Below are positions 1-14,179 of a stretch of 18,752 bases of DNA, one piece after another. The notes beneath the pieces were generated by a model. It saw only the letters and a list, made by a program, of their open reading frames with translations, searched no databases and was not told the origin of the DNA. The stretch covers positions 1-18,752 of the forward strand of contig JADMKE010000003.1 in the NCBI GenBank assembly GCA_018780035.1, in the 5' to 3' direction. Source of the stretch: Candidatus Sericytochromatia bacterium. GTDB lineage: Bacteria > Cyanobacteriota > Sericytochromatia > UBA7694. The position numbers were made by a program, and so were the translations under genes. Numbering within the stretch: the stretch's first letter is position 1; every line of letters begins with the position of its first letter.

Positions 1-13
1 CTTTTCATCCCAA

Positions 14-39
14 ATCCCCTGAAGGGGATGGGAATTCCC
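14..39 (-). terminator. Weak terminator-like hairpins downstream of the FlgG-like gene. One is ATCCCC-TGAA-GGGGAT (14-29) and the other is the palindrome GGGAATTCCC (31-40). There is no good U-tract.
   Basis: Inverted repeats read directly just 3' of the minus-strand stop. On the transcript they are followed by UUGGGAUGAAAAG, which is not U-rich. Confidence 0.15.
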
Positions 40-57
40 AGAGCGTTCTTTAAAAGC

Positions 58-1206
58 TCAATTGGATAAAGTGATCAATTTGCGCTCGCTGTCCACTGCC
101 AGATTAAAGCCCAATTCAGGCACGCAGCTTTCCAAATAACCAAGTTTGATCTGACCCAAACTGGCTTGCCCCGGTGGATAAGCCTTAACTGCGATTGATT
201 CTTCGCGATTGGGCAAAAGATAGGTGACTCCCCGGCTAAAACCCATGGCCTTGAGCGATTCAGGTTTCTCGGGTTTGGCCAATTGGAGTTGGCCCAATTT
301 TTGTGGCATCTGTGGATCGCTGCCTGACCAGACCGTACCGTCTGGATCCACTTTGAGCACCTTATGCCCTTTGGGCAAATAGAGTTGGGGCTCCAAGGGA
401 TAACCCTGTTCAGAGACCAACTGCCCATCTGGCGACTGCAGAATTTTGGCCTTGCGCGAAAACAGACGCTCACCGGTCAGCCGGTGGACAAAGACAAACA
501 GGCCCTGTCCATCGATGGCCCAATCCATGGGGTGTTCGGTTTTGCTCTGCTTTTCTGGGTGGGGAAATTGACACCCTGGCTGGGGGAGGGCGCTGACAGG
601 GGCCGAGAGATCTTCTAAAACGTTCTGGACGACAAAGCCAAAAAAGTTTTGGCCCGCTTGTCCTTGTTCAATTCGGCCAGAGTCGGGGGTGGTTTCATAA
701 TAACCAGGGAAATCCGGGTGGGCTTTGAGGGCCTCTGGATGAGGAACACGGCTCAGAGGAAATGCACCCAATTGTACGTCTTGCCCTTCAGCATTGAGCA
801 TTTTGGCATAGATACTGCCACTTTCGCTGACAAACCAAAATGCGCTCTCTTTGGGAAAGGTGATGGAGGGGTCAAAGAAAAAGCCCTCTTTTGTGACCAA
901 CTCGCCTTTGTCATTGATTTGAAAGGCCCCATTGCGGGTCAAATAGTGTTTGCCGTTGGACCGATCCAGAACCTGAAAGTAACCTTTGCCGTCGATGGCC
1001 CAGTCCAGCGCACGTTCACTGGCTTTCAGGGGGTGTTGTTTATAATCGGGGTCTGCAATTGCGCTTATGTCGGCAGGTACTTTCGCGGGCAAACCGGTAT
1101 TGACCAAAACGGTGCAGGCCATTTGCAGCGCGGCCAAAGAGCTGAACAGTATCATTTGCAAGGTCTGGCGTGTGCGGTGTGGACTGCGGGAAGAGGTTGA
1201 AGACAT
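58..1206 (-). CDS. Secreted protein made of two tandem FlgF/FlgG (flagellar rod/hook D1-core)-like modules. It has a Sec-type signal peptide and lacks the N-terminal flagellar rod helix. An alternative start at 1326 or 1155 is possible.
   Basis: The long minus-strand ORF is 58..1326. Two segments (aa ~108-205 and ~268-422 of the 422-aa ORF) match the FlgG core. Each begins DWAIDG(K/Q)G(Y/L)F and continues through ...TRNGAFQINDKGELVT..., ending in GY(Y/L)E-like C-terminal motifs (GYYETT, LGYLESCV). The N-terminal ANNxANxxTxGFK rod motif is absent. Starting from the internal Met at 1204-1206 gives n-region MSSTSSRSPHRTRQTLQ, h-region MILFSSLAALQMACTVLV, then NTGLPA|K. The TGA stop is at 58-60. 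There is no strong SD for any start. Confidence 0.6.
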   Translation of the reverse strand: MSSTSSRSPHRTRQTLQMILFSSLAALQMACTVLVNTGLPAKVPADISAIADPDYKQHPLKASERALDWAIDGKGYFQVLDRSNGKHYLTRNGAFQINDKGELVTKEGFFFDPSITFPKESAFWFVSESGSIYAKMLNAEGQDVQLGAFPLSRVPHPEALKAHPDFPGYYETTPDSGRIEQGQAGQNFFGFVVQNVLEDLSAPVSALPQPGCQFPHPEKQSKTEHPMDWAIDGQGLFVFVHRLTGERLFSRKAKILQSPDGQLVSEQGYPLEPQLYLPKGHKVLKVDPDGTVWSGSDPQMPQKLGQLQLAKPEKPESLKAMGFSRGVTYLLPNREESIAVKAYPPGQASLGQIKLGYLESCVPELGFNLAVDSERKLITLSN

Positions 1207-1242
1207 CGTGGATATACCCGTTTTTGCTGTAAATTCTCCCAG

Positions 1243-1262
1243 TGCAGGCGTATTGCAGGCGT
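1243..1262. promoter_or_regulatory. Direct repeat TGCAGGCGT x2 with 11-bp period, in the divergent promoter region between the FlgG-like gene and the MBL gene.
   Basis: tGCAGGCGTat tGCAGGCGTct at 1243-1251 and 1254-1262. This lies 37-58 nt upstream of the preferred minus-strand start at 1206. Confidence 0.25.
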
Positions 1263-1329
1263 CTAGCAGGAGTGTTTTAGTTATTCCCCAATTGCAGCGG
1301 TTATAACCACCCTCAGGTAAATTCACTTC

Positions 1330-1356
1330 GATTTGATTTTTGCCGCTGATTTGATT
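1330..1356. promoter_or_regulatory. Direct repeat GATTTGATT x2 with 18-bp spacing, about 40-65 bp upstream of the MBL start. A GGTTATAACC palindrome lies nearby at 1299-1308.
   Basis: GATTTGATT at 1330-1338 and 1348-1356. A TATCTA -10-like hexamer sits at 1361-1366 and the SD AAAGGAG at 1382-1388. Confidence 0.25.
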
Positions 1357-1394
1357 AGGCTATCTAAACGTGCTGTTTTTCAAAGGAGTTGTAT

Positions 1395-2243
1395 ATGTTA
1401 ACGTCTGGGTTAAAATCTGGGGTCATTTTTGCCCTTTTCACGCTGTCGGGACTGCTATCGCTATCTGGCACGTTCCAAGCCAATGCGGCCAATACAGCCC
1501 ATGCTGCCACCGAGATCTTGCGCCTGGACACAGGCATTGCCAATGTCTATTTGCTCAAGGGGCCCAAGTCATTTTTGATCGACAGCAGCTCAGTCGGCCA
1601 CGAGGCCGAGATTGAAGCTTGGCTCAAGGCCCACCAGACACCCGTTGAGAGCCTGGAAGCGATTATCTTGACCCACGGCCATGGCGATCACGCGGGTGGG
1701 GCGCTTAAATTGGGCAAATCGCGCGGCGTGCCGGTCTGGGTCGGAGCGGGAGACGCAGACATGTTGAATCGGGGCCGCAGCCGCGATTTAATTCCCACCA
1801 GTTTTTGGGCCGGGGTCTTGCGCCTCTTTGTGGATATGCCGTATACGCCCTTTCAAGCCGACCGCCTGATCACTGAACCGGTGGATCTCAGCCCCTTTGG
1901 CATTCAGGGCCGGGTCTTGCCGCTGCCGGGCCATACCTCTGGCTCGCTGGGGGTGGTGCTGGACGAAAAAAAACAGGCAGTGGTGGGTGATTTGTTCCGG
2001 GGAGGCGTCTTTCAAAACAGCACGCCCCGTGTGCATTTTTTCCACGAAGAGCGGCCCCAAACCATGTGGCAAATCTGGCATTTGCTTGAACACGAAGGCC
2101 TGCGCGAATTTTTTCCGGGGCATTTTGGCCCGCTCCAGGCGGCGGATCTCAAACGGGTCTTTTTTCCAAATGGGCATTTTAACTGGGCCATTCCTGCCGG
2201 GGGGCAGGATCCAGAAAGCTGCCCTTTTGAGACCGCCCTGTGA
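1395..2243 (+). CDS. Secreted metallo-beta-lactamase-fold hydrolase (MBL superfamily) with an N-terminal signal peptide.
   Basis: The HxHxDH zinc motif reads LTHGHGDHAGG. The N-terminus MLTSGLKSGVIFALFTLSGLLSLSGTFQANAA is a signal peptide. SD AAAGGAG sits 6 nt upstream of ATG 1395; the ORF track begins at TTG 1389, two codons earlier. A later GHTSGS His is typical of the MBL fold. TGA at 2241-2243. Confidence 0.85.
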   Translation: MLTSGLKSGVIFALFTLSGLLSLSGTFQANAANTAHAATEILRLDTGIANVYLLKGPKSFLIDSSSVGHEAEIEAWLKAHQTPVESLEAIILTHGHGDHAGGALKLGKSRGVPVWVGAGDADMLNRGRSRDLIPTSFWAGVLRLFVDMPYTPFQADRLITEPVDLSPFGIQGRVLPLPGHTSGSLGVVLDEKKQAVVGDLFRGGVFQNSTPRVHFFHEERPQTMWQIWHLLEHEGLREFFPGHFGPLQAADLKRVFFPNGHFNWAIPAGGQDPESCPFETAL

Positions 2244-2259
2244 TAGCGCTGCCTTGGGT

Positions 2260-2286
2260 GGCCTCCACAGCTGGGAAGCCATTTTT
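2260..2286 (+). terminator. Candidate intrinsic terminator after the MBL gene.
   Basis: GGCCTCC (2260-2266), loop ACAGCT, GGGAAGCC (2273-2280). The stem is GC-rich with one mismatch and is followed directly by ATTTTT (2281-2286). It starts 17 nt after the stop. Confidence 0.4.
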
Positions 2287-2392
2287 CGAGAATTGGCGCA
2301 GGAATTTCGGGCCTGCCCTGATGCCTAAGAACATTCGCTAGATTGACACTCCCGTCAAGGGGAGCGCTCTTGTAAAGTTCTGTGAACAGCGC

Positions 2393-2516
2393 TTGACCTG
2401 CTGTGCCCGAATCAGGGAAAATAGGTTAAGAATAAATTAAATTTTTGCGATGATTTTGTTTGAATTTGTTTTAAATTATTTGCAAAAATAATCAGTGAAT
2501 AATCAGATGGTATAAG
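2393..2516 (+). promoter_or_regulatory. AT-rich promoter region of the ether-lipid operon. It contains a candidate sigma70 -35/-10 pair, an extended -10-like element and an AATAATCAG direct repeat.
   Basis: TTGACC (2393-2398), a 17-18 nt spacer, then GAAAAT. TGgTATAAG lies at 2508-2516, only about 10 nt before the start codon. AATAATCAG occurs at 2487-2495 and 2498-2506 with 11-bp period. The A/T-rich stretch runs 2425-2520. Confidence 0.3.
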
Positions 2517-2526
2517 GTTGTTGGTG

Positions 2527-4395
2527 ATGGATAATCAGAAGAATGACTCAGCAAATAGTCGCTATGGCAGTGCTTTAGAGCGCTTGATGCCCGGTAGCGC
2601 ACCGACCCGGATTTTTCCGCCGGCGCCGGTGATTGGCAAAGATGAAATTGAGAGCCTTGGGGAATGGGGCTTCGAAGATTCCGGGTTTACGATCAATGAG
2701 CGCGGCCATGCCACTTTTACGGGGGGACGTTACACCCTCAGTGGTTTGGAACTGCCCTCGCTGGTGCCCTGGATTGGCGAAATGATGAAGGTGGAGATCA
2801 GCCGCGATGACATCCACCGCTCGGCAGGCACGCGCGAATTTCCAGCGGCCCGCCAAAATGCGGGCTTTGCTGAGGCCATTGCCCAGTTCTTAAAGCCCGA
2901 ACAAATCACCGCAGAGGGCGCGATTCGCCTGCGCCATGGCCACGGTCACACCCAAGAAGAAATGTACCAGGTCAATTATGGCATGTTGCCCCGCATCCCA
3001 GATTTGGTGGTGTTTCCGAACGAAGAGGAGCAGATCACAGCCTTGGTGGCTGCTGCCCTCAAACACAATGTGGTCCTCATTCCCTATGGCGGTGGCACCA
3101 GTGTCACCGAAGCCCTGGTCTGCCCCAGCAACGAAGAGCGGGTGATTGTCTCGGTTGACATGCAGGGCATGAACCGGATTCTCTGGATCGACCCCGTCAA
3201 CCGCATGGCCTGCATTCAAGCGGGCGCGGTGGGCCGCCATTTGGCCAAACAATTGGAGAGCTATGGCTTTACCATGGGCCACGAACCCGACAGCATCGAA
3301 TTTTCGACCCTCGGCGGCTGGATTGCCACCAACGCCAGCGGCATGAAGAAGAACAAATACGGCAATATTGAAGACATCGTGCTCGACGTGCATGTGGTCA
3401 CCACCTCCGGTGAACTGCGCCGCTCAGGCGTGGCCCCGCGGGAATCTGTTGGCACCGACCCCCGCCAGTGGATCTTTGGCTCTGAGGGCAATTTGGGGAT
3501 TATTACCTCAGCGGTGGTCAAACTCTTTGAATTGCCCGAAGCCCGCCGCTATGGCTCGATCCTCTTTCCCAGTTTCGAAGAGGGCACGGCTTTTATGTAC
3601 GAATTGGCCAAAGCGGGAAAGCCGCCTGCCAGCGTGCGTTTGGTCGACAATGTCCAGTTTCAATTTTCGATGGCACTCAAACCCGCCAGCACAGGTATGC
3701 GTGTGCTCAAGAAAAAGCTTGAAAAGATGATTGTGACCCAGCTCAAAGGCTTTGACCCGCTCAAAATGGTGGCCTGCACCCTGGTCTTCGAAGGCCGGGC
3801 CGATGAAGTGGCTGAGCAAGAGCGGCGCGTTTACAAAATAGCCAACCAACATGGCGGCATGAAAGCCGGGGCCGAAAATGGCCACAAAGGCTACGAATTG
3901 ACCTTTGGCATCGCCTATTTGCGCGATTGGATTATGAAACACTATCTTCTCGGGGAGTCCTTTGAAACCTCTGTGCCTTGGAGCCAATTGCTGGATCTCT
4001 GTGAAAAGGTCAAGGCCCGGATCAACAAAGAGCACCAGGCCTTAAAACTGCCGGGCAAACCCTTTGTCACGGCCCGCGTGACCCAGATCTACGATACCGG
4101 CGCCTGTGTCTATTTTTACCTGGGCGTCTCTTACAAAGGGGTTGAAAACCCCACCCAGACCTTCAAAGTGATCGAAGACGCGGCCCGCGAAGAGATTCTC
4201 AGCTGTGGCGGCTCGCTTTCTCACCACCATGGCATTGGCAAATTGCGTCAGCATTTTTTGCCCGAGATCATGAGTGAGACCCTGCTCAAATGGAATGCCC
4301 TGGTCAAAGAGGCGGTCGATCCCCAAAACGTCTTTGGGGTCGGCAATCTCTATCCCGTGGCAGAATTGGCACCCAAAGCCGGGGGCACTGTATGA
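2527..4395 (+). CDS. Alkyl-dihydroxyacetonephosphate synthase (alkylglycerone-phosphate synthase, AGPS), an FAD-linked oxidase. The start could instead be GTG 2524 or TTG 2518.
   Basis: The N-terminus has the AGPS-specific region LGEWGFEDSGFTINERGHATFTGGRYTLSGLELPSL, comparable to mammalian RWNGWGYxDSxF...GxRYxLSG. The FAD-binding PCMH fold reads VVFPNEEEQITALVAAALKHNVVLIPYGGGTSV. The C-terminal signature is HHHGIG. AAGG SD lies about 9 nt upstream. TGA at 4393-4395. Confidence 0.9.
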   Translation: MDNQKNDSANSRYGSALERLMPGSAPTRIFPPAPVIGKDEIESLGEWGFEDSGFTINERGHATFTGGRYTLSGLELPSLVPWIGEMMKVEISRDDIHRSAGTREFPAARQNAGFAEAIAQFLKPEQITAEGAIRLRHGHGHTQEEMYQVNYGMLPRIPDLVVFPNEEEQITALVAAALKHNVVLIPYGGGTSVTEALVCPSNEERVIVSVDMQGMNRILWIDPVNRMACIQAGAVGRHLAKQLESYGFTMGHEPDSIEFSTLGGWIATNASGMKKNKYGNIEDIVLDVHVVTTSGELRRSGVAPRESVGTDPRQWIFGSEGNLGIITSAVVKLFELPEARRYGSILFPSFEEGTAFMYELAKAGKPPASVRLVDNVQFQFSMALKPASTGMRVLKKKLEKMIVTQLKGFDPLKMVACTLVFEGRADEVAEQERRVYKIANQHGGMKAGAENGHKGYELTFGIAYLRDWIMKHYLLGESFETSVPWSQLLDLCEKVKARINKEHQALKLPGKPFVTARVTQIYDTGACVYFYLGVSYKGVENPTQTFKVIEDAAREEILSCGGSLSHHHGIGKLRQHFLPEIMSETLLKWNALVKEAVDPQNVFGVGNLYPVAELAPKAGGTV

Positions 4396-7070
4396 GCGCA
4401 GACCAACCCGGATACCGGGTCTTGCTGACGGGGGTGACAGGCTTTGTTGGCAAGGTGGTGCTCGAAGAGCTCTCGCGCCGGGCTGAAAGTCTCAAGCTTG
4501 AACAGATCTACGTCTTGATTCGGGCCAAAAAAAACCAGGCCGCAGAGGTGCGTTTTCGCGAAGAGGTGGTCGCCTCTGAATGTTTCAGTGCCCTGCCTGC
4601 GGGCTGGGAGAGCCGGGTCAAGGTGCTTTCGGGTGATTTGACCGAATGGAAGCTCGATCCCGCCACGCAACAGGAATTGCAAACTGAGTTGACCCATGTG
4701 ATTCACTGCGCCGCTTCGGTGGCCTTTGACCTGCCTGTCAAAGAGGCCGCCGAGGCCAATATTGTCAGTGCCTTAAACCTGTTAGAGGTGGTGCGCGGCT
4801 GTCGCAAATTGCAGCGCTTTGTTGATGTTTCCACCGCTTATGTCTCGCCCCACTCAGGCAATGATCTCACCCCGATTCCCGAAGCGCTGGTGCCCTTGCC
4901 TGAACCGGCCGAACTGCTGTTTAAAGGCATTATGGACGGCTCGCTCGAAGAAAAGGCCCTCTTGCAAAAATTGGGCTACCCCAATACCTATACCCTCACC
5001 AAATGCCTGAGTGAGCACCTGTTAACCGAGCGCAAAGGGGAGATTCCCCTGGCGATTGTTAGGCCCAGTATTATTTCTGCCAGTTGGCAATACCCCCGGC
5101 CCGGCTGGATCGACAGCTATGCCGCTTTTGCGGGTTTTGTCGGCCTGATTGGCGCGGGCATGCTCAAATGTGTCGTGGCCCAAGAAGAAACGGTTTTGGA
5201 CATTGTGCCCTGTGATGTGGTCTCCCACCGCATTATTGAGACCGCTTTTCAGCCCACCGGCACTCCCGCACTCGTGCAACACGTGGTCTCGGGCGTGGAC
5301 CAGGGCTGCCGGATCGACACCTGCCTGGCGGGCATCGAAAACTATTTCCGCCGCCACCCTGTGCAGGGCTGGCCGGGGCTCAAAGCGATCAGCAACGGTG
5401 GCTCAATCGCCATTCAAGATTGGCTGCAGCATAAATTGCCGACGATGGTTGCCAGCGCCTGGTTTGGCCTGCAGGGCAAGACCCGGCAAAAGCGCCAAAT
5501 TCAAAAAGTGGTCGAAAAAATTCAGTATCTCAACGATGCTTTTCCCTATTTTACCCACAATACCTTTCGCTTTGAATCGGCCACACCCATGGCTTTGACC
5601 GGTTTTGATGCCCGTCTCTATATTGAGCGGGTCTGCAAAGGCGTGCACACCCATCTGATGCGCGCCAAACCTTCAGAAACCCTGCTGGGTGGGGCGGATC
5701 ATCGCTACCCCAAAGGCGATTTGGCCTGGGCCCAGCAACAGCCCCGTGGCAATTGGGCGATTCGCACCGCTGCCTATGTCGTGCGCAAAGGCCTGCGCCG
5801 CAGCAACGATCGGATTACCTTTGACCGCGAGAGCTTTGAAAAGGCACTCAGCCAGGTTCCTGCTGAGAGCCTTTTGATTCTGGTGCCCAGCCACCGCAGT
5901 TATATGGACTTTGTGCTCTGCTCTTATTTGGTCTTTGCCCATCCCGAGTTAAATATTGCCATTCCCCGCATTGCCGCTGCCAGCGACTTTGGCAAATTGC
6001 CGCTGCTGGGCTGGTTTTTGCAAAAGACCCACGCCTTTTATATCCGCAGGGGCACAGGCAAAGCTGATCCCGAATTGACAGAGCGGATTCAAACCCTGGT
6101 CTCTCAGAACGAGACCTTGGAATTCTTTATCGAAGGCACCCGCAGCCGCTCGCGCCAGTTTTTGGCGCCCAAACGTGGCATTCTGCGGGCCTTGCAGCAA
6201 ACGGGTGTGAGCTGTACGCTTTTGCCGATTGCGATTAGCTACGATCTCGTGCCCGAAGCGCGGCCTTTTTTACAGGAATTGCAAGGCGGTGCCAAAGAGC
6301 GCATGAAAATGCGCACCTTTCTCAGGTGGACAGGCCGTTTGGCCGCAGGAAAAATTCGCTTGGGCCAGGTGCATTTGAGCTGTGGCACGCCCCTGAATTT
6401 GGATGGCGAGACAGATATTCACGCCCTCAGCCACTCGATTGTGGGTGAGTTGCAAGACAAAACCGCTGTTTCGACTTTGCACCTGCAGGCCTTTTTGCAG
6501 CAACATCCCGTAGAAGGGGTGGATTTGGAATGGCTGCAAAAAGCGATTCAAGCCCGTGGCGGTCAGGTGATCGCAAGCCCCTTGCAAGATGTGCAGCGGG
6601 TGGATTGGATCACCGAGCGCACCATGCGTTACCACTGGAAACACTATTTTTACCCCGATGTTTTGGCTTTGTTGCCGGGGCATCCGGTTTTTACCCGGCA
6701 TACTCAAGACAATGCCTATTTGCCGGTTTGGAAACAAGCGGCGCCAAGCAACCCGCGTGAAGACGCGATCTTAATGCGGCTTTTACATGCCCTGTTTGAA
6801 TCCATGACCCGCGACTATACCCGCATTGTCGATCTCGCCCGCCAGCAAGGCCACTTGCCGATCAAGGCCGAGGCCATTGTCGCCGCATCCCCTGAGATTT
6901 TTCTGCCCGTGGCCGAAGAGGTGCTCAAAGAGCTCTGCGAACGCGCTTTGATGAAGCCCGATCCAGCGGGGCAACGGCTGGTGCCCGGCGAAAACTGGGA
7001 AGATATCCGGGCCTTTGCCCTGGCCTGTGGCTGGCATGAGGCCTTAAACCGGGTCAAAACCGCCTCATGA
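4392..7070 (+). CDS. Bifunctional fatty acyl-CoA reductase (FAR, NAD_binding_4/male-sterility type) fused to a glycerol-3-P/DHAP acyltransferase (HX4D) domain. It is ElbD/MXAN_1675-like.
   Basis: ATG at 4392-4394 overlaps the AGPS TGA (ATGA), and GGGGG lies 6 nt upstream. The N-terminal Rossmann motif is LLTGVTGFVGKVV, with a YxxxK-type region YPNTYTLTK. The C-terminal acyltransferase has motif I HRSYMD (5893-5910) and motif III FIEGTRSRS (6125-6151). Confidence 0.9.
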   Translation: MSADQPGYRVLLTGVTGFVGKVVLEELSRRAESLKLEQIYVLIRAKKNQAAEVRFREEVVASECFSALPAGWESRVKVLSGDLTEWKLDPATQQELQTELTHVIHCAASVAFDLPVKEAAEANIVSALNLLEVVRGCRKLQRFVDVSTAYVSPHSGNDLTPIPEALVPLPEPAELLFKGIMDGSLEEKALLQKLGYPNTYTLTKCLSEHLLTERKGEIPLAIVRPSIISASWQYPRPGWIDSYAAFAGFVGLIGAGMLKCVVAQEETVLDIVPCDVVSHRIIETAFQPTGTPALVQHVVSGVDQGCRIDTCLAGIENYFRRHPVQGWPGLKAISNGGSIAIQDWLQHKLPTMVASAWFGLQGKTRQKRQIQKVVEKIQYLNDAFPYFTHNTFRFESATPMALTGFDARLYIERVCKGVHTHLMRAKPSETLLGGADHRYPKGDLAWAQQQPRGNWAIRTAAYVVRKGLRRSNDRITFDRESFEKALSQVPAESLLILVPSHRSYMDFVLCSYLVFAHPELNIAIPRIAAASDFGKLPLLGWFLQKTHAFYIRRGTGKADPELTERIQTLVSQNETLEFFIEGTRSRSRQFLAPKRGILRALQQTGVSCTLLPIAISYDLVPEARPFLQELQGGAKERMKMRTFLRWTGRLAAGKIRLGQVHLSCGTPLNLDGETDIHALSHSIVGELQDKTAVSTLHLQAFLQQHPVEGVDLEWLQKAIQARGGQVIASPLQDVQRVDWITERTMRYHWKHYFYPDVLALLPGHPVFTRHTQDNAYLPVWKQAAPSNPREDAILMRLLHALFESMTRDYTRIVDLARQQGHLPIKAEAIVAASPEIFLPVAEEVLKELCERALMKPDPAGQRLVPGENWEDIRAFALACGWHEALNRVKTAS

Positions 7071-8104
7071 GTACACACCCTTCGCATTATCTAATCACCG
7101 GCGCCACGGGCTTTCTCGGTCGCCATGTGATTGAACAATTGGCCGAACAGCAGTTGGCCTTTTTGCCGCTGGTGCGCGATCCACAAACCTGGAAAAAGCG
7201 CGATTGGGGCAAAAGTCTGCAGGCGGCTCAGGTCGTCACAGGGGGGTTAAACGACCTCTCTGCTTGGCAAGACAGCCTTCCGGCTTTGGATGGCATCTTT
7301 CACCTTGCCGCGCTTGTGCGCCACAGCCGCAGCGATGATTTGGCGCTAAAAGAGCTTTATGCCGCCAATGTGCAGGGCACGCTCAATATGGTCAAACTGG
7401 CAGCCTTAAAAAAATGCCGCTTGGTCTTTGTCTCGACCTCGGGCACGGTGGGTGTGTTTAACAGCAAACAGGAATGGGCCGATGAACATTCGCCTTTTTG
7501 TGAGACCATGATCAGCGATTGGCCCTATTACGATTCCAAATTGCAGGCCGAGCGCGAAGCGCGCAAACTGGCCCAGGAACTGGGCGTGGAGTTGGTGATT
7601 ATTCGCCCGCCGGTATTGCTCGGTCCGGGCGACCACCGCTTTCGTTCCACCGGCCATATTATTCGCTATCTGCGCAAACGCCTGCCTTTTCTCATTCGCG
7701 GGGGCATGCATTTTATCGACATCCGCGATGCGGCAGCCGCTTTGATTCGCGCCATGCAACACGACAGTCCCCAGCCGGTTTACCACCTCAGTGGTGTGGC
7801 CTGCAGCATCGACAGTTTTTTTCGCATGGTCGAAAAGGCGTCAGGGGTGGGGCCTGTGCCGCCCCAATTGCCCGCGCCACTGGCCCTGGCCATTGCCCGC
7901 ACGGCCAGCGGCCTGAGCAAGGTTGCTGGCCTGCACGAGAGCCCGCTGCCCGATCCGGTGGTTGTCGAAATGGCGGGCAAATACTGGGATGTGCGCTCGC
8001 GTTATGCGGCCCAAGACCTGGGTTTTCAGAACCGCTTTGGCCAAGACACGATCAACGACACCGTCGATTGGCTCAAATTACACCATCCTCAATTGCGATC
8101 CTGA
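7067..8104 (+). CDS. Extended short-chain dehydrogenase/reductase (NAD-dependent epimerase/dehydratase, 3beta-HSD-like fold). Candidate acyl/alkyl-DHAP reductase.
   Basis: ATG at 7067 overlaps the upstream TGA (ATGA). The NAD-binding motif is ITGATGFLGRHV and the catalytic pair is YYDSKLQAE. TGA at 8102-8104. Confidence 0.85.
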   Translation: MSTHPSHYLITGATGFLGRHVIEQLAEQQLAFLPLVRDPQTWKKRDWGKSLQAAQVVTGGLNDLSAWQDSLPALDGIFHLAALVRHSRSDDLALKELYAANVQGTLNMVKLAALKKCRLVFVSTSGTVGVFNSKQEWADEHSPFCETMISDWPYYDSKLQAEREARKLAQELGVELVIIRPPVLLGPGDHRFRSTGHIIRYLRKRLPFLIRGGMHFIDIRDAAAALIRAMQHDSPQPVYHLSGVACSIDSFFRMVEKASGVGPVPPQLPAPLALAIARTASGLSKVAGLHESPLPDPVVVEMAGKYWDVRSRYAAQDLGFQNRFGQDTINDTVDWLKLHHPQLRS

Positions 8105-9423
8105 ACCTGAATCCGGCAGCGTTTGACGCCCCGGCCCTCGATCTCACTGACCTGAATTTCAAAGTCGCCGTATTGGAGCCGGTCGCCGATTTGGGGGGCG
8201 TGGCCCAATAGCAGCAGCACCAGGCCTCCGATGGTCTCTACTTCTGGGTGTTCCAGCGCTTTTCCGAGAAATTCTTCCAGAGCGTGTAAACGCAGGTTTG
8301 CCGAGACCTCGATCTGAAATTCCCCTTGCACCTCGATCTCGGGTTTAACTGTGGTTTTGTTCTTGGGGGTGTCCAGAATTTGGGCACAGATATCTGTCAG
8401 GGTTAAAATCCCTGCGGTGCCGCCGTATTCATCCAAAACCCCAGCCATTTGCACATGGGCCTGTTGCAAAACCTGTAAGACGATTTCCAAGGGGGCCGAT
8501 GCAGACACAAAGGGCAGGCTGCGAATCACTTCAGGGTGTTTGTTCAGATCGTGCAGATGGGATTCCGGCGCGGTCTGCGTAAGCAAAATTAAGAGATCGC
8601 GCACATGTACAAATCCGACAATTTCGTCCAGGTTTTCGCCGTAGACCGGATAGCGGCTGTGAATCCGATCAGACAAAACCGCGCGGATTTTATCCGGGCT
8701 GGCATTTAAGGCCAGACCCTGGGTCTGAACCCGTGGGATCATAATATCTCGGGCTTTGAGGTCGCTAAAGGCCAACAGATCTTGCAAAATATCTGCGGTT
8801 TCTTCGCTGAGCAGGCCTGCGTTTTCGCTCTCTTCGACGATATAGTGGAAATCATCGAGGGTGGTCTGGTTCTCTGATTCAGGCGACCCTTCCAGTTTCA
8901 GCATTTTGAGTAAAAAATTCCCGATTTGATTGAGCAAATAGACCAGGGGAAACATCAGCCGTTTAAACAAGAACATCACGGGTGCCACCCGCAGAGCCGT
9001 TTGGCCAGCCCTTTGCAAGGCCAGGGTTTTGGGCACCATTTCGCCCAAGACAACATGGAAATACGTCAGCCCAGCAACGGCCAGAATACCTGCCACGCTG
9101 TGGCTGGCCAAGATCTGCAAAAACCCCACTTCGGCAAAGAAATGCAAGAGGCCTTCTGCCAAGACATATTCGCCATACATGCCAAGTCCCAGGCTGGCGA
9201 GGGTGATCCCCAATTGGGCCGTGGCGATATACGCATCTTGGGCCTGGGTGGAGGTTTTGGTCTCGATTAATTTTTGCAGAATCCCGCTCTGTTTTGCTGT
9301 TGCCAATTGCTGTAATTCCAGCGTTGAAGTCATCACAATGGCAAATTCGGCGGCCACAAACAAAGCGTTTAAAAACAACAAGAGCAGAATCAGAAAGGCC
9401 GGTAAAAGCACGGTTTCAAACAT
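8089..9423 (-). CDS. CNNM/HlyC/CorC-family membrane protein (DUF21 TM domain, CBS pair, CorC_HlyC C-terminal domain). Putative Mg2+/Co2+ efflux or hemolysin-family protein; copy 1.
   Basis: The N-terminal TM region is MFETVLLPAFLILLLLFLNALFVAAEFA. CBS-pair and CorC_HlyC signatures are present (ARDIMIPRV..., VLDEYGGTAGILTLTDI...). Its 3' end overlaps the SDR gene 3' end by 16 bp, convergently. Confidence 0.9.
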   Translation of the reverse strand: MFETVLLPAFLILLLLFLNALFVAAEFAIVMTSTLELQQLATAKQSGILQKLIETKTSTQAQDAYIATAQLGITLASLGLGMYGEYVLAEGLLHFFAEVGFLQILASHSVAGILAVAGLTYFHVVLGEMVPKTLALQRAGQTALRVAPVMFLFKRLMFPLVYLLNQIGNFLLKMLKLEGSPESENQTTLDDFHYIVEESENAGLLSEETADILQDLLAFSDLKARDIMIPRVQTQGLALNASPDKIRAVLSDRIHSRYPVYGENLDEIVGFVHVRDLLILLTQTAPESHLHDLNKHPEVIRSLPFVSASAPLEIVLQVLQQAHVQMAGVLDEYGGTAGILTLTDICAQILDTPKNKTTVKPEIEVQGEFQIEVSANLRLHALEEFLGKALEHPEVETIGGLVLLLLGHAPQIGDRLQYGDFEIQVSEIEGRGVKRCRIQVQDRN

Positions 9424-10738
9424 CGCTTTGGCCCTCTGCTGGATGGGGGGTATAGAGCACGGTTAAGATAATGGGGCCAGCCATTGCTTCGATTTGTATT
9501 TCTCCATGGGTATCCGACCAACGATCCCCTGGCGTGGGCAGGGTTGGGAATTGTTCGATTAAAAATCCGCTGACTGTTGTGGTGTGCTCTGAAATCCAGC
9601 GAATGCCGATCTGATCTTTGAGTCCTTCGAGACGCATGCGGCCTGGAATTTGGTAGCGACCCGCTCCCAAAGGGATGCAGAGGCTGCGCAGGGGTTTAAA
9701 TTCGTCGTTTAAATTGCCAGTTAATTCCCCCAGGATATCTTGCAGCGTCAAGAGGCCTGATACCCCCCCGTGTTCGTCGACCACCAGGGCCATCGATGCT
9801 TTGTGCTCTCGCAATTTGAGCAGGGCTCTTTCGACTGTGAGATCGCGGGGAATGGCCAATATGGGCTCCAAGAGCGGCTCTATTTCTGTAATCTGGCCCT
9901 GGCGGGCAAAGATTTGTACACAGTGTTTGACCGAAATGCTGCCGATTACCTGCTCGGGGGATTCACGCCAGACCGGCAGACGGGCAAAGGGAATTTCATG
10001 CATCCAGTCCAACATTTGTGCTGGGCTGAGCTTGAGATCCAGCATTTGGATTTCTTGGCGGGGTACCATTAGCTCGCGCACTGTGCGTTTGCCCAAATGC
10101 AGGGCTTTGCGCAGACGGCGAGAAATGCCTTTATCGAGCACACCCACTTTTTGGCTTTCGCGCAAGAGATAGTCGATTTCGGCAGGGGAATGGATGTGTT
10201 GATGGCTCTCTTGGCTCAGGCCGATCCGCCGACAAATAAAATGGCCGCTGCCATTGAGGACAGCCAAGGGCAGAGCCAAGAGCCAGAGTGAAATGCGCAT
10301 CGGCCAAACGGTATACAGCGCAAGCGGGGTCGGATAGCGCAGCGCCAGAGATTTGGGTAAAATTTCACCCAGGATCATCTGCAAAGCTGTCAAAACCAAT
10401 AAGACAAAACTGGCTGCGCCATATTCGGCAATTTGTGCAGGTAAAAAGCCCTTGAGCCAAGGAGCCAGGGCCTTTTGGCCGTAGGCCCCCAGAATCAAGC
10501 TGGAAAGGGTAATCCCCACCTGGCAGGCGGCAATATATTGGTCAAAACGCTGGGGGCTTTGCAAAATGTTGAGAAAGTGTTTTGCCAAAGGATGGCCCTC
10601 TTCAGCCAGGGCCTGGATCCGGGGCTGACGCACACTGACGGAGGCAAATTCAGCGGCCACAAAGAGGGCGTTGACCCCGATCAGCAATAACAGAACCAGC
10701 AGGACGATCAAGACATGATTTCTTTGGCCATTTGCCAT
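9416..10738 (-). CDS. CNNM/HlyC/CorC-family membrane protein (DUF21, CBS pair, CorC_HlyC); tandem paralog, copy 2.
   Basis: The N-terminus is MANGQRNHVLIVLLVLLLLIGVNALFVAAEFA. CBS and CorC signatures are VRELMVPRQEI... and VVDEHGGVSGLLTLQDI.... The stop overlaps the copy-1 start by 8 nt, and the 5' end overlaps the GNAT 3' end by 31 nt. Confidence 0.9.
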   Translation of the reverse strand: MANGQRNHVLIVLLVLLLLIGVNALFVAAEFASVSVRQPRIQALAEEGHPLAKHFLNILQSPQRFDQYIAACQVGITLSSLILGAYGQKALAPWLKGFLPAQIAEYGAASFVLLVLTALQMILGEILPKSLALRYPTPLALYTVWPMRISLWLLALPLAVLNGSGHFICRRIGLSQESHQHIHSPAEIDYLLRESQKVGVLDKGISRRLRKALHLGKRTVRELMVPRQEIQMLDLKLSPAQMLDWMHEIPFARLPVWRESPEQVIGSISVKHCVQIFARQGQITEIEPLLEPILAIPRDLTVERALLKLREHKASMALVVDEHGGVSGLLTLQDILGELTGNLNDEFKPLRSLCIPLGAGRYQIPGRMRLEGLKDQIGIRWISEHTTTVSGFLIEQFPTLPTPGDRWSDTHGEIQIEAMAGPIILTVLYTPHPAEGQSDV

Positions 10739-11235
10739 TCATCGAGATATTCACCGTCTACCCACAGCGCTTTGGGCTCGTTGCCATATTGAACAAAGCC
10801 CAGACGTTGGTACAGGCGAATGGCGGCGGTGTTGTAGGCCCCGACGCCGAGTTTAACGATCTGAATGCCGTGGACTTTGCCCCACTCAAGGCAGGCGGTG
10901 ATCAGTTTTTCGGCCAGACCCTGTCCTTGGTAAGCGGCTTTGACATAAATGCCAACCAAGAGGGCATTGTGGCGCTCTTTGGGTGATTCACCCCGTACCA
11001 GCCCAGCCGTGCCCACGAGACCTTCGGGGGTCTCTGCCAGATAGATGATTTGATTGGGGCTGTTGCAAGCGGATGAGACGCGCTGGGTCCAAAAATCCAT
11101 CGGACGGGTAACTTGATCTGCGTAATCGGAACTAAAAGCTTTGGGGTACAATTTCAGGCCTTCCAGACGCAGGTGTCGATAGGCTTCAGCATCGTCTGAT
11201 TGAATGGCGCGAAGGTGGATGGGGCTTTCTGACAT
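10708..11235 (-). CDS. GNAT-family N-acetyltransferase, 175 aa.
   Basis: The acetyl-CoA motif A is VKAAYQGQGLAEKLI and the N-terminal region reads IHLRAIQSDDAEAY. A strong SD (GAAAGAGGAAAT) sits directly upstream of ATG 11233-11235. The longer ORF-track start at 11349 would overlap the upstream gene and lacks an SD. Confidence 0.85.
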   Translation of the reverse strand: MSESPIHLRAIQSDDAEAYRHLRLEGLKLYPKAFSSDYADQVTRPMDFWTQRVSSACNSPNQIIYLAETPEGLVGTAGLVRGESPKERHNALLVGIYVKAAYQGQGLAEKLITACLEWGKVHGIQIVKLGVGAYNTAAIRLYQRLGFVQYGNEPKALWVDGEYLDEWQMAKEIMS

Positions 11236-11257
11236 ATTTCCTCTTTCGAGCATGGGG

Positions 11258-11650
11258 CTAGGGCATTGCGAGATTGGGGGGTTCGATTGGGCTGGCACTC
11301 GCTGGCTTTTCAACAGGACCTGCGCTTTGAGGCTCATTGTTGGGGCCATTTTGCGGCTTTTTTTTGTTTTTTGACTTCGCCTGTTTGTTGGGTTCTTTCT
11401 GCTGATGCGCTTTTGGCTCGGTTTTGTTTTTTCGGGCTGCTTGGATCTCGGCCGAAGAGGTTTCAGCCACCCGCCAAAAAGGATCGTCTAAGGTCACTTT
11501 GCTTTTGGGCAGGTCCAATTGCAGCGCTTTGGCGCCAGCCAGGATGATGCGGGCCGCGGCTTCTTGAATTTTAACATCGTAGTTGATCGCCACATGTCGA
11601 ATCAGCCTGTGAATTTCTGGTGAAACAGGAATCGTTTTGCTGGTGGTCAT
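11258..11650 (-). CDS. Small ribbon-helix-helix (CopG/Arc/omega-like) DNA-binding protein with a roughly 55-aa K/P/N/Q-rich disordered C-terminal tail, 130 aa.
   Basis: N-terminal KTIPVSPEIHRLIRHVAINYDVKIQEAAARIILAGAKA fits the beta-strand, helix, helix pattern of RHH. The tail is KNKTEPKAHQQKEPNKQAKSKNKKKPQNGPNNEPQSAGPVEKP. GGGGG SD lies about 9 nt upstream of ATG 11648-11650. TAG at 11258-11260 lies 22 nt before the GNAT start. Confidence 0.55.
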   Translation of the reverse strand: MTTSKTIPVSPEIHRLIRHVAINYDVKIQEAAARIILAGAKALQLDLPKSKVTLDDPFWRVAETSSAEIQAARKNKTEPKAHQQKEPNKQAKSKNKKKPQNGPNNEPQSAGPVEKPASASPIEPPNLAMP

Positions 11651-11662
11651 ACTTCAGCCCCC

Positions 11663-11710
11663 TTATATTTTTATAGCATTATAGCTTTATATTCTTATAA
11701 AATTATAAAA
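11663..11710. repeat. Iteron-like array of six tandem 8-bp units TTATAnnn, a candidate operator for the RHH protein. It overlaps the promoter of the RHH-GNAT(-CorC) transcription unit.
   Basis: TTATA begins at 11663, 11671, 11679, 11687, 11695 and 11703. The units are TTATAttt, TTATAgca, TTATAgct, TTATAttc, TTATAaaa, TTATAaaa. The same 143-bp intergenic region also has TTGCGATT x2 (11721-11728, 11749-11756) and the palindrome AAGTGCACTT (11778-11787). Confidence 0.6.
11678..11707 (-). promoter_or_regulatory. Candidate sigma70 promoter for the RHH gene on the minus strand: -10 TATAAT, 17-bp spacer, -35 TTATAA.
   Basis: The minus strand reads ...tttTTATAAgaatataaagcTATAATgctat.... The TATAAT is the reverse complement of 11678-11683, about 28 nt upstream of the ATG. 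The promoter is embedded in the TTATA array. Confidence 0.35.
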
Positions 11711-11793
11711 TAATCATCGATTGCGATTCAAGCCAGAACAGAGTTATTTTGCGATTGTCTTGGTTTTTGGTTAGCGAAAGTGCACTTGAGAGA

Positions 11794-12846
11794 CTAACAA
11801 ATCCGGGGCAATTGTTCTCCGCTGAGCAAATCCAGTAACCGTGTCGTGCCGTACGGATTGTGTAAGATCACACGGGGGGCACCTGTTTGAACCACGCCAA
11901 TTTGGGCGGCGTTCCTGCCCAAGGGATGGCTGCGCAGACACGCCAAAGCCGCTTCTGCTTGAGCTTGGGGCAAAAAGATCAGCATTTTGCCTTCATTGGC
12001 CACATAAAGCGGGTCAAATCCCAGAATTTCACAGGCGCTTGCCACAGCCGGGTCAATCGGAATCTGAGCGGCTTTGAGCTCAATTTGCAGCTCTGCTTGG
12101 GCTGCGATTTCGTTCAGCACACTGGCCACGCCGCCCCGTGTGGGATCGCGCAGGCAGTGTAATTCAAAACCTGCAGTTAAAAGTTCACTGACCAATTCAT
12201 GGAGGGGAGCACAATCACTTTTAATCGGACCTTCAAAGGCCAGACCTTCCCGTTCAGCCATCACGGCCATGCCGTGGGCCCCAATTTCCCCGTTGATCAA
12301 AATGGCGTCACCGACTTTGACCTGTTGGGGCCCAATTTCAAGTGCTGTCTCGATCAGGCCAATGCCAGCGGTGTGAATAAACAGGCCATCGCCTTTGCCT
12401 TTTTCGACCACCTTGGTATCCCCTGTGACCAACAAGACGCCACAGCGCTTGGCTGCTTCAGCCATGCTGGCCACCACCCGCTGCAAAACGGCCATTTCAA
12501 GCCCCTCTTCCAGAATCAGGCCGACACTTAAATAAAGCGGTTTGGCCCCACACATGGCCAGATCGTTGACCGTGCCAAAGACCGCCATTGAACCAATATC
12601 TCCACCTGCAAAAAACAGGGGATGGACCACATAGGAATCACAGCTAAAGGCCAGCACCTGATTGCCCAGCACCAAACGGGCGCCATCGTGTGCGGCGGCC
12701 AAAAAAGGGTTGGCAAAAGCGGGGAAAAGGGTGTCCTGCAACAGGTTTTGCATCAGCCGCCCGCCGCCGCCATGGGCCAGCAGGACGCGTTCGGGCTGCT
12801 CAAAAGGCAGGGGGCAATTCAGTTCAAATGCGGGGGGGTCTGTCAT
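11794..12846 (-). CDS. hypE: [NiFe]-hydrogenase maturation protein HypE (AIR-synthase-related carbamoyl dehydratase).
   Basis: ATG 12844-12846 overlaps the hypD TGA (ATGA). N-terminus is [33 protein letters not shown]. The C-terminus ends ...PRIC, the conserved C-terminal Cys. The ORF-track 5' extension to 12999 is rejected. Confidence 0.92.
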
Positions 12847-13934
12847 GGCGTGACTCTCCTGTATTGGTAATAGGCGGCACAGGCCCCTTCCGTCGAGACC
12901 ATGGTTGCTCCAAGTGGGCGTTCTGGGGTACAGCGGGTGCCAAAAGCCGGGCATTCCAAGGGCTTTTTTAGGCCGCTTAAAATTTCGCCGCTGAGGCACT
13001 CTGCGGGTTCAAGCACTTGCAACTCTTCCAAACCAAAGCGCAGGGTGGCGTCAAAGTGGCGATAGTTGCGATTCAAACTGAGTCCACTGTCAGGCAATTC
13101 ACCCAGTCCCCGCCATTTGCGGGGCACCACCTCAAAAACCTGTTTAAGCATGGCTTGGGCCTGTAAATTGCCCTCTGATTTCACCACCCGGTCGTAGGCA
13201 TTGGCGACGCTGTGTTGGCCGTTTTCGAGTTGCTCCAAACAGACCCAGACGCCTTTGAGCAGATCGACAGGCTCAAAACCAGTGACCACAATCGGGACTC
13301 GGTATTTCTCTGCCAGCGGGCCGTAGGCCTGCAGACCCATCACTGTGCAAACATGGCCAGCGGCCAAAAATCCCTGCACCTGGCAATTGGGCGCACTCAA
13401 CAGGGCTTCCAAAGCGGGGGGCACAAGCACATGAGAAACCAAGAGCGAAAAATTGGTCAGGCCTTCGCGCTCCGCTTGATACACCGCCATGGCATTGGCC
13501 GGGGCGGTGGTTTCAAAGCCCACGGCAAAAAACACCACTTCGCGCTGGGGGTTGTTGCGGGCCAAAGCCAGGGCATCCAGCGGGGAATAAACCATGCGAA
13601 TATCTGCCCCTTGGGCTTTGAGGCTGCGCAGATCCTGCCTGCTGCCGGGCACCCGCAGCATATCCCCAAAGGTGCAAAATAGGACCCCAGCTTGGGCTGC
13701 GATCTGATGTGCCCGATCGAGCATTTCCAGCGGCGTCACACAGACCGGGCAGCCAGGCCCGTGTAACAATTCAACCCCTGGGGGCAGCAGTTGATCGAGT
13801 CCATATTTGACGATTGCATGGGTCTGCCCACCACAGACCTCCATCAAGGTCCAGGGGCGGGTCACCGTTTTGGCGATCTGTTCAGCCAAGGCCCGAACCC
13901 CAGCCGGATCGCGGTATTCGTCTAAATATTTCAT
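12843..13934 (-). CDS. hypD: [NiFe]-hydrogenase maturation factor HypD.
   Basis: Signature motifs [13 protein letters not shown] and FETT are present. ATG 13932-13934 overlaps the hypC stop (ATGA). Confidence 0.95.
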
Positions 13935-14179
13935 GGCTTCAGCTCTTTTTCAATTTGGATCAGGGTCTGCAAATCCGCCAAGACCTTTTCCGCTGCTTCG
14001 GGGTCCAAAAGCGAAAGCGCAAAACCCACATGCACAAGCACATAGTCCCCCACTTGGGCCTCGGGCACATAGGCCAAACTGATCTCTTTGATGATTCCGC
14101 CAAAACTCACTTTGGCCGGGAGCAGCAGGTCATCGGGGTCGATGATTGCGATAATTTCACCGGGCAGGGCTAAACACAT
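13931..14179 (-). CDS. hypC: Hydrogenase assembly chaperone HypC/HupF, 82 aa.
   Basis: The start [10 protein letters not shown] is the HypC MCL(A/G)IP signature. ATG at 14177-14179 lies 4 nt after the hypF stop. Confidence 0.9.

Follow-up and report, generated by a model that had tools for sequence, protein, structure and literature searches.

In Myxococcus xanthus, one operon carries MXAN_1676, MXAN_1675 and MXAN_1674, which encode alkyl-dihydroxyacetonephosphate synthase (AGPS), a fusion of fatty acyl-CoA reductase (FAR) with a GNPAT-like acyltransferase, and a member of the NAD-dependent epimerase/dehydratase family, respectively, and deletion or disruption of MXAN_1676 lowers the ether lipids of this bacterium (PMC9131029, PMC13012113). 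FAR-GNPAT fusions are now named FARAT (PMC13012113), and the enzyme of Tetrahymena thermophila (TtFARAT) has been found by experiment to be bifunctional, supplying both substrates of AGPS (PMC7375469; cited in PMC13012113). In this study, we analyzed a cassette of three genes, encoding AGPS (gene 1), FARAT (gene 2) and an extended short-chain dehydrogenase/reductase (SDR; gene 3), in a stretch of 18,752 nts from a Candidatus Sericytochromatia bacterium (contig JADMKE010000003.1, positions 1 to 18,752, forward strand, assembly GCA_018780035.1; hereafter the window). An earlier annotation made from the letters of the DNA (the sequence-only reading) had proposed a complete ether-lipid cassette here. 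Its core is correct, and the operon type is already known and common in environmental genomes.

The window cassette and the M. xanthus operon share the same three families, in the same order and on one strand. Orthologs from Cystobacter/Archangium are 52-55% identical to gene 1 and 38-45% identical to gene 3, and gene 2 can be aligned collinearly along its whole length to its counterparts in Cystobacter (L014, query amino acids (aa) 1-855 at 43%) and Archangium (L032, query aa 10-881 at 39%). The two systems differ in that the window host is a member of Sericytochromatia with ~55% GC, in that the window proteins form their own well-supported clade, and in that neither an elb operon nor carF is visible within the window. 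The sequence-only reading had likened gene 2 to "ElbD/MXAN_1675" next to MXAN_1676. The gene order MXAN_1676-1675-1674 agrees with this, whereas ElbD is a separate protein that had been conflated with MXAN_1675. ElbD is encoded in the elbA-E operon (MXAN_1531-1527); like gene 2 it combines FAR-like and acyltransferase domains, and it contributes to ether lipids, but it also has ACS and ACP domains, its acyltransferase is AGPAT-like, and elbD does not adjoin an AGPS gene (PMC9131029). Because gene 2 contains neither ACS nor ACP domains (Pfam detected no AMP-binding or PP-binding domain in it), its identification as ElbD was rejected.

Three further systems invite comparison. Eukaryotic FARATs, such as TtFARAT and Dictyostelium FARAT, also join an N-terminal FAR and a C-terminal DHAP-acyltransferase (DHAP, dihydroxyacetone phosphate) in one polypeptide; unlike TtFARAT, which has 1,140 aa, the product of gene 2 is a bacterial protein of 892 aa encoded in an operon with AGPS, and the likeness is drawn from published descriptions. 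The mammalian peroxisomal pathway (FAR1, GNPAT, AGPS and PexRAP/DHRS7B) has the same proposed chemistry and an orthologous AGPS, whereas in the window FAR and acyltransferase are fused, peroxisomal targeting does not apply and the reductase candidate is an extended SDR (PF01370). Anaerobic bacteria may instead reach sn-1 ether-linked glycerolipids through the plasmalogen synthase PlsA/PlsR or the glycerol ester reductase Ger (PMC13159169). The end product is of the same kind, but these unrelated enzymes reduce an existing ester bond and perform no acyl-for-alkyl exchange on DHAP; genes of the PlsA/PlsR or Ger type were not seen in the Pfam-based annotation of the window.

Gene 1 is an AGPS ortholog, for which an acyl-for-alkyl exchange activity is predicted. 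Its product matched guinea-pig peroxisomal AGPS at E 2.4e-166 (558 bits, query aa 27-608), in an unbroken alignment starting at query aa 27 (chain residue 74), and Dictyostelium AGPS at E 1.7e-85. The best glycolate/D-lactate oxidase reached 102 bits (E 2.9e-28), and the oxidase matches begin only at query aa 113-160, leaving the AGPS-type N-terminal region uncovered. This AGPS-specific region (aa 27-157) is followed by FAD_binding_4 (PF01565, aa 158-299, E 4.5e-36) and FAD-oxidase_C (PF02913, aa 336-604, E 3.2e-40). Residues R419, T568, Y578 and H615-617 of the guinea-pig enzyme, whose functional roles are known from structural work, correspond to R371, T519, Y529 and H566-568 of gene 1, the last being the HHH loop of the HHHGIG motif (nt 4222-4230). 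Both features on which the sequence-only reading had based its identification, the N-terminal region and HHHGIG, are therefore present, and a grouping with the oxidases was rejected on the basis of the score difference and the N-terminal region. A special tie to eukaryotic AGPS was also rejected, since the identity to the guinea-pig enzyme (~44% in a trimmed alignment) lies in the middle of the range of 45 bacterial AGPSs (40-48%).

By its domains and motifs, gene 2 is a fusion of FAR and a GPAT/DHAPAT-type acyltransferase with intact catalytic motifs, as the sequence-only reading had described. NAD_binding_4 (PF07993) covers aa 12-279 (E 1e-57) and Acyltransferase (PF01553) aa 487-616 (E 2e-23). 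The FAR domain contains TGVTGFVGK and the YxxxK pair Y200-K204, and the acyltransferase domain contains the HX4D motif HRSYMD (H501-D506, nt 5892-5909) and FFIEGTRSR (aa 578-586). Across 16 homologs with 44-68% identity, the nucleotide-binding motif, Y200/K204, H501/D506, F578-R586 and P612/Y617/D618 are invariant. The acyltransferase is closest to the PlsB/GPAT catalytic core, yet falls far below the cut-offs of those NCBIfam models; the C-terminal "Sterile" domain of FARs (PF03015) scored 19.9 bits against a cut-off of 35.4, and the C-terminal region of ~270 aa is free of Pfam matches. An identical protein was recovered in our searches (P0122). Many FARATs of Gemmatimonadota (L018-L025, L029, L030, L037, L042 and L044) stop near window residue 753 and lack the last ~140 aa. 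The linkage of gene 2 to AGPS points to DHAP as the probable acyl acceptor.

Gene 3 encodes an extended SDR matching PF01370 (Epimerase), PF16363 and PF01073, so that all Pfam families anticipated by the sequence-only reading were found, PF02913/PF01565 in gene 1, PF07993 and PF01553 in gene 2, and PF01370 in gene 3. No match to PF00106 (adh_short) was obtained at E≤0.01; further matches were to NAD_binding_4 (E 1e-19) and the thioester-reductase model TIGR01746 (E 1.8e-22), and the HpnA model remained under its cut-off. TGATGFLG, S123/T124, Y154 and K158 are invariant in 30 homologs. The AlphaFold model is confident (pLDDT 93.4), and the solved structures nearest to it in fold are Gox2253, cinnamoyl-CoA reductases, dihydroflavonol reductase and ketoreductases, which suggests a carbonyl-reductase-type extended SDR; the fold does not reveal the substrate. 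Gene 3 is also the counterpart of the third gene in the cassette copies of Cystobacter/Archangium (Myxococcia), which we used as stand-ins for MXAN_1674. PexRAP/DHRS7B and yeast Ayr1, which we take to be classical SDRs (adh_short, PF00106), are of another type: gene 3 is not a PexRAP/DHRS7B-type SDR by its sequence family, and at most it may work like PexRAP. Given its linkage, gene 3 is most likely the 1-O-alkyl-DHAP reductase of the cassette.

The three genes are co-oriented open reading frames (ORFs) on the + strand, and the two ATGA start/stop overlaps claimed earlier were both read in the sequence (Table 1). The ORF of gene 1 opens at TTG 2518; ATG 2527, with AAGG in front, is the likely start, and the product of 622 aa obtained from it is identical to the NCBI protein model. 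The sequence-only reading had placed the 5' limit at 2393, a start that was rejected because its frame differs from that of the ORF and meets stop codons on reading through; this position is non-coding and coincides with a weak promoter-like site (Table 1). It had also treated the genes as one stoichiometric unit, which is more than a common type of operon junction can tell. Overlaps of 4-10 nts likewise occur in the hyp genes and the two CNNM genes of the near-identical relative L081; such junctions are thus ordinary in the host genome and are signs of an operon and of possible translational coupling, no proof of stoichiometric expression. Among related loci, 24 of 53 could have an overlap of 4 nt or 1 nt between genes 1 and 2, and 15 of 30 could have one between genes 2 and 3. 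Downstream, the convergent CNNM/CorC-type gene, with its 16-nt overlap, closes the operon after gene 3.

The linkage of these genes holds across phyla. More than 1,100 relatives were retrieved with gene 2, and each of the best 120 has the FAR plus acyltransferase architecture. Gene 1 belongs to a family with 1,007 clusters (50% identity) at E≤1e-30 in a library of 1.8 billion proteins. In species-representative genomes, 590 stretches contain relatives of gene 2, and the best 58 of these loci include metagenome-assembled genomes (MAGs) with the labels Sericytochromatia, Gemmatimonadota (many), Binatia, Nitrospira, Myxococcota/Myxococcales, Cystobacter, Archangium, Bradymonadales, Spirochaetes, Bacteroidetes, Marinimicrobia and Legionellales; lower-scoring ones, e.g., from Marinobacter, are FAR-only enzymes. 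Linkage was counted in 44 loci with a FAR-acyltransferase gene, considering those with enough flanking sequence. All 42 such loci have AGPS directly upstream of FARAT, and in 29 of 40 the next gene downstream is the SDR. The activities are further linked by fusions. In a Nitrospira sp. MAG (L011, 7914-11483), FAR, acyltransferase and SDR form one ORF (P0105, 1170 aa); three metagenomic proteins of 1,725-2,727 aa (P0404, P0413 and P0401) join FAR, acyltransferase and a C-terminal AGPS; and two others (P0416, and P0398 from a Gammaproteobacteria MAG) join acyltransferase and AGPS only. The strict AGPS-FARAT linkage across many phyla shows that, at the genome level, the DHAP ether-lipid route extends well beyond the myxobacteria. 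The earlier description of the route as rare and essentially myxobacterial holds for experimental work; for genomes it does not, and a 2026 survey of GTDB also reports individual ether-lipid genes in several bacterial phyla (PMC13012113).

Some of the fusions show additional features. In P0105 and P0118 (1,113-1,170 aa), the SDR stands in place of the last ~135 aa of a window-type FARAT. An acyl-CoA-binding domain (ACBP) is present in P0404 and P0413 and absent in P0401, and P0404 also contains an aminotransferase-like domain.

Taken together, we interpret the cassette as an operon that starts the synthesis of 1-O-alkyl glycerolipids via the DHAP route of animal peroxisomes and M. xanthus, with a probability of roughly 0.75. 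The FAR domain of gene 2 would first convert a fatty acyl thioester to a fatty alcohol with NAD(P)H, while the acyltransferase domain of the same protein would turn DHAP into 1-acyl-DHAP. The flavoenzyme AGPS encoded by gene 1 would then exchange the acyl group for the fatty alcohol, creating the ether bond of 1-O-alkyl-DHAP, and gene 3 would reduce the C2 keto group to give 1-O-alkyl-sn-glycerol-3-phosphate, which general phospholipid enzymes of the cell could acylate and provide with a head group. The sequence-only reading had stated that FAR, DHAP-acyltransferase, AGPS and reductase steps were all covered. The families found support this for FAR/acyltransferase and AGPS, whereas the reductase step is assigned to gene 3 through linkage. 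Beyond the operon itself, we tentatively propose, at somewhat less than an even chance, that the gene 3 family (taken as MXAN_1674 orthologs) may supply the 1-O-alkyl-DHAP reductase so far missing from the bacterial pathway, as an extended SDR in the role that PexRAP, an unrelated classical SDR, has in animals; the self-contained module would then enable Sericytochromatia and many other uncultured lineages to make eukaryote-type alkyl ether lipids.

Several points weigh against this interpretation. We know of no bacterial enzyme of the cassette that has been assayed in vitro, and of no lipid data for Sericytochromatia. Sequence alone cannot distinguish DHAP from glycerol-3-phosphate as the acyl acceptor of gene 2. 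The SDR class of gene 3 is not that of the known acyl/alkyl-DHAP reductase, and its nearest relatives of solved structure comprise thioester and aldehyde reductases besides ketoreductases. An SDR does not adjoin the cassette in 11 of 40 loci (two of the 11 have one elsewhere in the locus), and in L085 an amidohydrolase occupies the SDR position. The ether lipids of M. xanthus decrease only slightly when MXAN_1676 alone is lost, because the elb pathway dominates there (PMC9131029).

Some of these points bear on the most serious alternative, which concerns gene 3: it might act on the fatty aldehyde released by FAR, serve as a second acyl-thioester reductase or have a head-group or sugar role, with the keto step left to an unlinked enzyme. 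The NAD_binding_4 and TIGR01746 matches, the cinnamoyl-CoA and aldehyde-type reductases among the closest structures, and the 11 loci with no SDR beside the cassette would all fit such a role. On the other hand, it is established that alcohol-forming FARs perform both reductions themselves (TtFARAT is cited in PMC13012113), of the steps leading from AGPS to general phospholipid synthesis, keto reduction alone would otherwise have no candidate enzyme, and the SDR is tightly linked in 29 of 40 loci across phyla and fused to FARAT in L011. We therefore regard a different role for gene 3 as unlikely.

A second alternative is that the end products are plasmalogens (vinyl ethers), made by a PEDS1/CarF desaturase encoded elsewhere in the genome. 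The sequence-only reading had reported that CarF/PEDS1 is missing from the window and had predicted an alkyl ether lipid instead of a plasmalogen. The first statement stands: tblastn with a human PEDS1 probe, which matched PF10520 at 252 bits, gave nothing better than E 2.9 in the 18.7-kb window, and the same probe detected no homolog in the 22-kb loci of the relatives L081-L085. The second cannot be concluded from 18.7 kb, as M. xanthus carF also lies outside the MXAN_1676-1674 operon (PMC9131029), so that the absence of PEDS1 from the window is a poor guide to alkyl versus alkenyl product. Elsewhere, PEDS1/CarF-type homologs do stand next to AGPS-FAR cassettes, in a Spirochaetales MAG (L048, 10006-10497, - strand; 43% identity to the human probe, E 5e-38) and in a Legionellales MAG (L057, 3097-3586), which suggests complete plasmalogen clusters outside Myxococcota. 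The unlinked carF and these neighboring homologs speak for plasmalogens here. In addition to the negative searches, however, the GTDB survey found all four enzymes, including PEDS1, in only 73 genomes, 61 of Myxococcota and 12 of five other phyla (PMC13012113), and we consider plasmalogens an improbable end product of the operon.

Finally, the idea that the cassette makes no ether lipids at all, with gene 2 yielding fatty alcohols, wax esters or acyl-glycerol-3-phosphate and gene 1 being a FAD oxidase of a hydroxy acid, draws on the best named NCBIfam models, which are GlcD for gene 1 and PlsB for gene 2 and which score far under their cut-offs, and on the generic names that NCBI gives the cassette proteins, and is very improbable in view of the 558 versus 102 bits of gene 1, its retained AGPS N-terminal region and catalytic residues, and the invariable AGPS-FARAT adjacency, which together with the single-polypeptide FAR-acyltransferase-AGPS fusions points to one pathway.

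According to the NCBI label, the window host is an uncultured Candidatus Sericytochromatia bacterium. The products of genes 1-3 are 100% identical to MBT9544051.1-MBT9544053.1, encoded on a 406-kb contig of a Candidatus Sericytochromatia MAG, which bears out the earlier suspicion of an instance outside the myxobacteria. Sericytochromatia are placed under the Cyanobacteriota/Melainabacteria group in NCBI and are a non-photosynthetic sister lineage of oxygenic cyanobacteria. The GC content within the window is 0.50-0.59. That at third codon positions (GC3) is 0.65-0.67 in the cassette, at the upper end of or slightly above the values of its neighbors (0.54-0.65), and recent horizontal acquisition was not accepted, as composition gives no clear signal.

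In neighbor-joining distance trees, which are indicative only, the window groups with Sericytochromatia LF-bin-423 and L083-L085 (30 of 30 bootstraps for FARAT), apart from the Cystobacter/Archangium clade. The relatives L083-L085 (52-67% identity) have kept the cassette in wholly different flanks, and L085 is flanked by transposases, which indicates that the module has moved within or between genomes over longer times. The cassette behaves as a portable module. Neither the upstream MBL-fold gene nor the downstream CNNM genes stay next to it in L083-L085, and they were rejected as parts of it. Two side observations concern further relatives. The FARAT of Sericytochromatia LF-bin-346 (L031, 1108-3738), whose upstream flank is too short to show AGPS, groups with Gemmatimonadaceae outside the clade of the window, which could reflect an independent acquisition or a binning error. 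In the 57%-identical relative L084 (5557-7877), a patatin-like lipase and a small PlsC-like acyltransferase (291 aa) lie directly upstream of AGPS; it is plausible that the latter adds the sn-2 acylation step to the module.

The coordinates of the cassette and its surroundings are listed in Table 1. The window neighbors are a flagellar hook gene, an MBL-fold hydrolase, two CNNM/CorC genes, a GNAT acetyltransferase, hypE/D/F and a PEP-utilising enzyme, with no lipid genes among them. Promoter-like sites upstream of gene 1 are not more numerous than expected from shuffled sequence, a terminator scan found nothing convincing 3' of gene 3, an Rfam scan of the window returned zero matches, and a hydropathy scan of the three cassette proteins revealed no convincing transmembrane segment.

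Table 1. Positions of the cassette genes, their junctions and other features in the window
Feature	Position	Strand	Remarks
Flagellar hook-type gene (FlgE/F/G D1 domain)	58-1326	-	
Promoter candidate TTGACC-18-GAAAAT, weak sigma-70-like	2393-2422	+	9/12 matches; in the AT-rich 284-nt gap upstream of gene 1
Gene 1, AGPS, 622 aa	2527-4395	+	Identical to MBT9544051.1
Gene 1/gene 2 junction ATGA	4392-4395	+	Stop TGA 4393-4395 overlaps gene 2 ATG 4392
Gene 2, FARAT, 892 aa	4392-7070	+	Identical to MBT9544052.1
Gene 2/gene 3 junction ATGA	7067-7070	+	Gene 2 stop overlaps gene 3 start
Gene 3, extended SDR, 345 aa	7067-8104	+	Identical to MBT9544053.1
Operon end	8089-8104		3' end of gene 3 shares 16 nt with the 3' end of the convergent CNNM/CorC-type gene
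CNNM/CorC-type gene, convergent	8089-9423	-	3' neighbor of the cassette
hypE, hypD, hypF (Pfam) and PEP-utilising enzyme	11794-18743	-	hypC-sized ORF between hypD and hypF, as called in L081

Some other features of the region were also observed. Two other assemblies carry the cassette at 95.6% identity. The relatives L081 and L082 (99% protein identity) contain ~511 additional bases between the MBL-fold gene and AGPS (L081 7345-7855 versus window 2265/2266), in which a 205-aa ORF free of Pfam matches is called. As the window lacks these bases, the difference is an insertion or deletion just upstream of the promoter region of the operon. The tandem CNNM/CorC-type genes (8255-10719) gave no megablast match to L081/L082 despite synteny of the same genes, between a cassette that is 95.6% identical and hyp genes that are 93.3% identical. 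This segment is locally far more diverged, possibly through recombination or fast evolution. Between the GNAT acetyltransferase gene and hypE lies a conserved 130-aa ORF with no Pfam match (11258-11650, - strand), also called in L081 and L082. The hook gene and the hydrogenase-maturation set imply motility and hydrogenase use in this Sericytochromatia bacterium.

Our literature search found no paper tying Sericytochromatia to ether lipids, and the window adds a known operon type to a lineage for which it has not previously been discussed. If the cassette is active, it would be the first stated indication of animal-route ether-linked membrane lipids in Sericytochromatia. The finding bears on which organisms make the alkyl glycerol ethers used as environmental biomarkers, and on whether eukaryotes obtained the pathway from Myxococcota; in our trees, the window AGPS does not stand nearer to the animal enzyme than the AGPSs of other bacteria do, and thus lends no support to a different donor. 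Should the proposal for gene 3 be true, alkyl ether lipid capacity would extend to Sericytochromatia, Gemmatimonadota, Nitrospira, uncultured Myxococcota and others, and the monoalkyl glycerol ethers found in sediments and soils would have a wider range of likely producers. The most useful lead is the conserved and occasionally fused third gene, which offers a concrete candidate for the one step of the bacterial pathway that has had no assigned enzyme.

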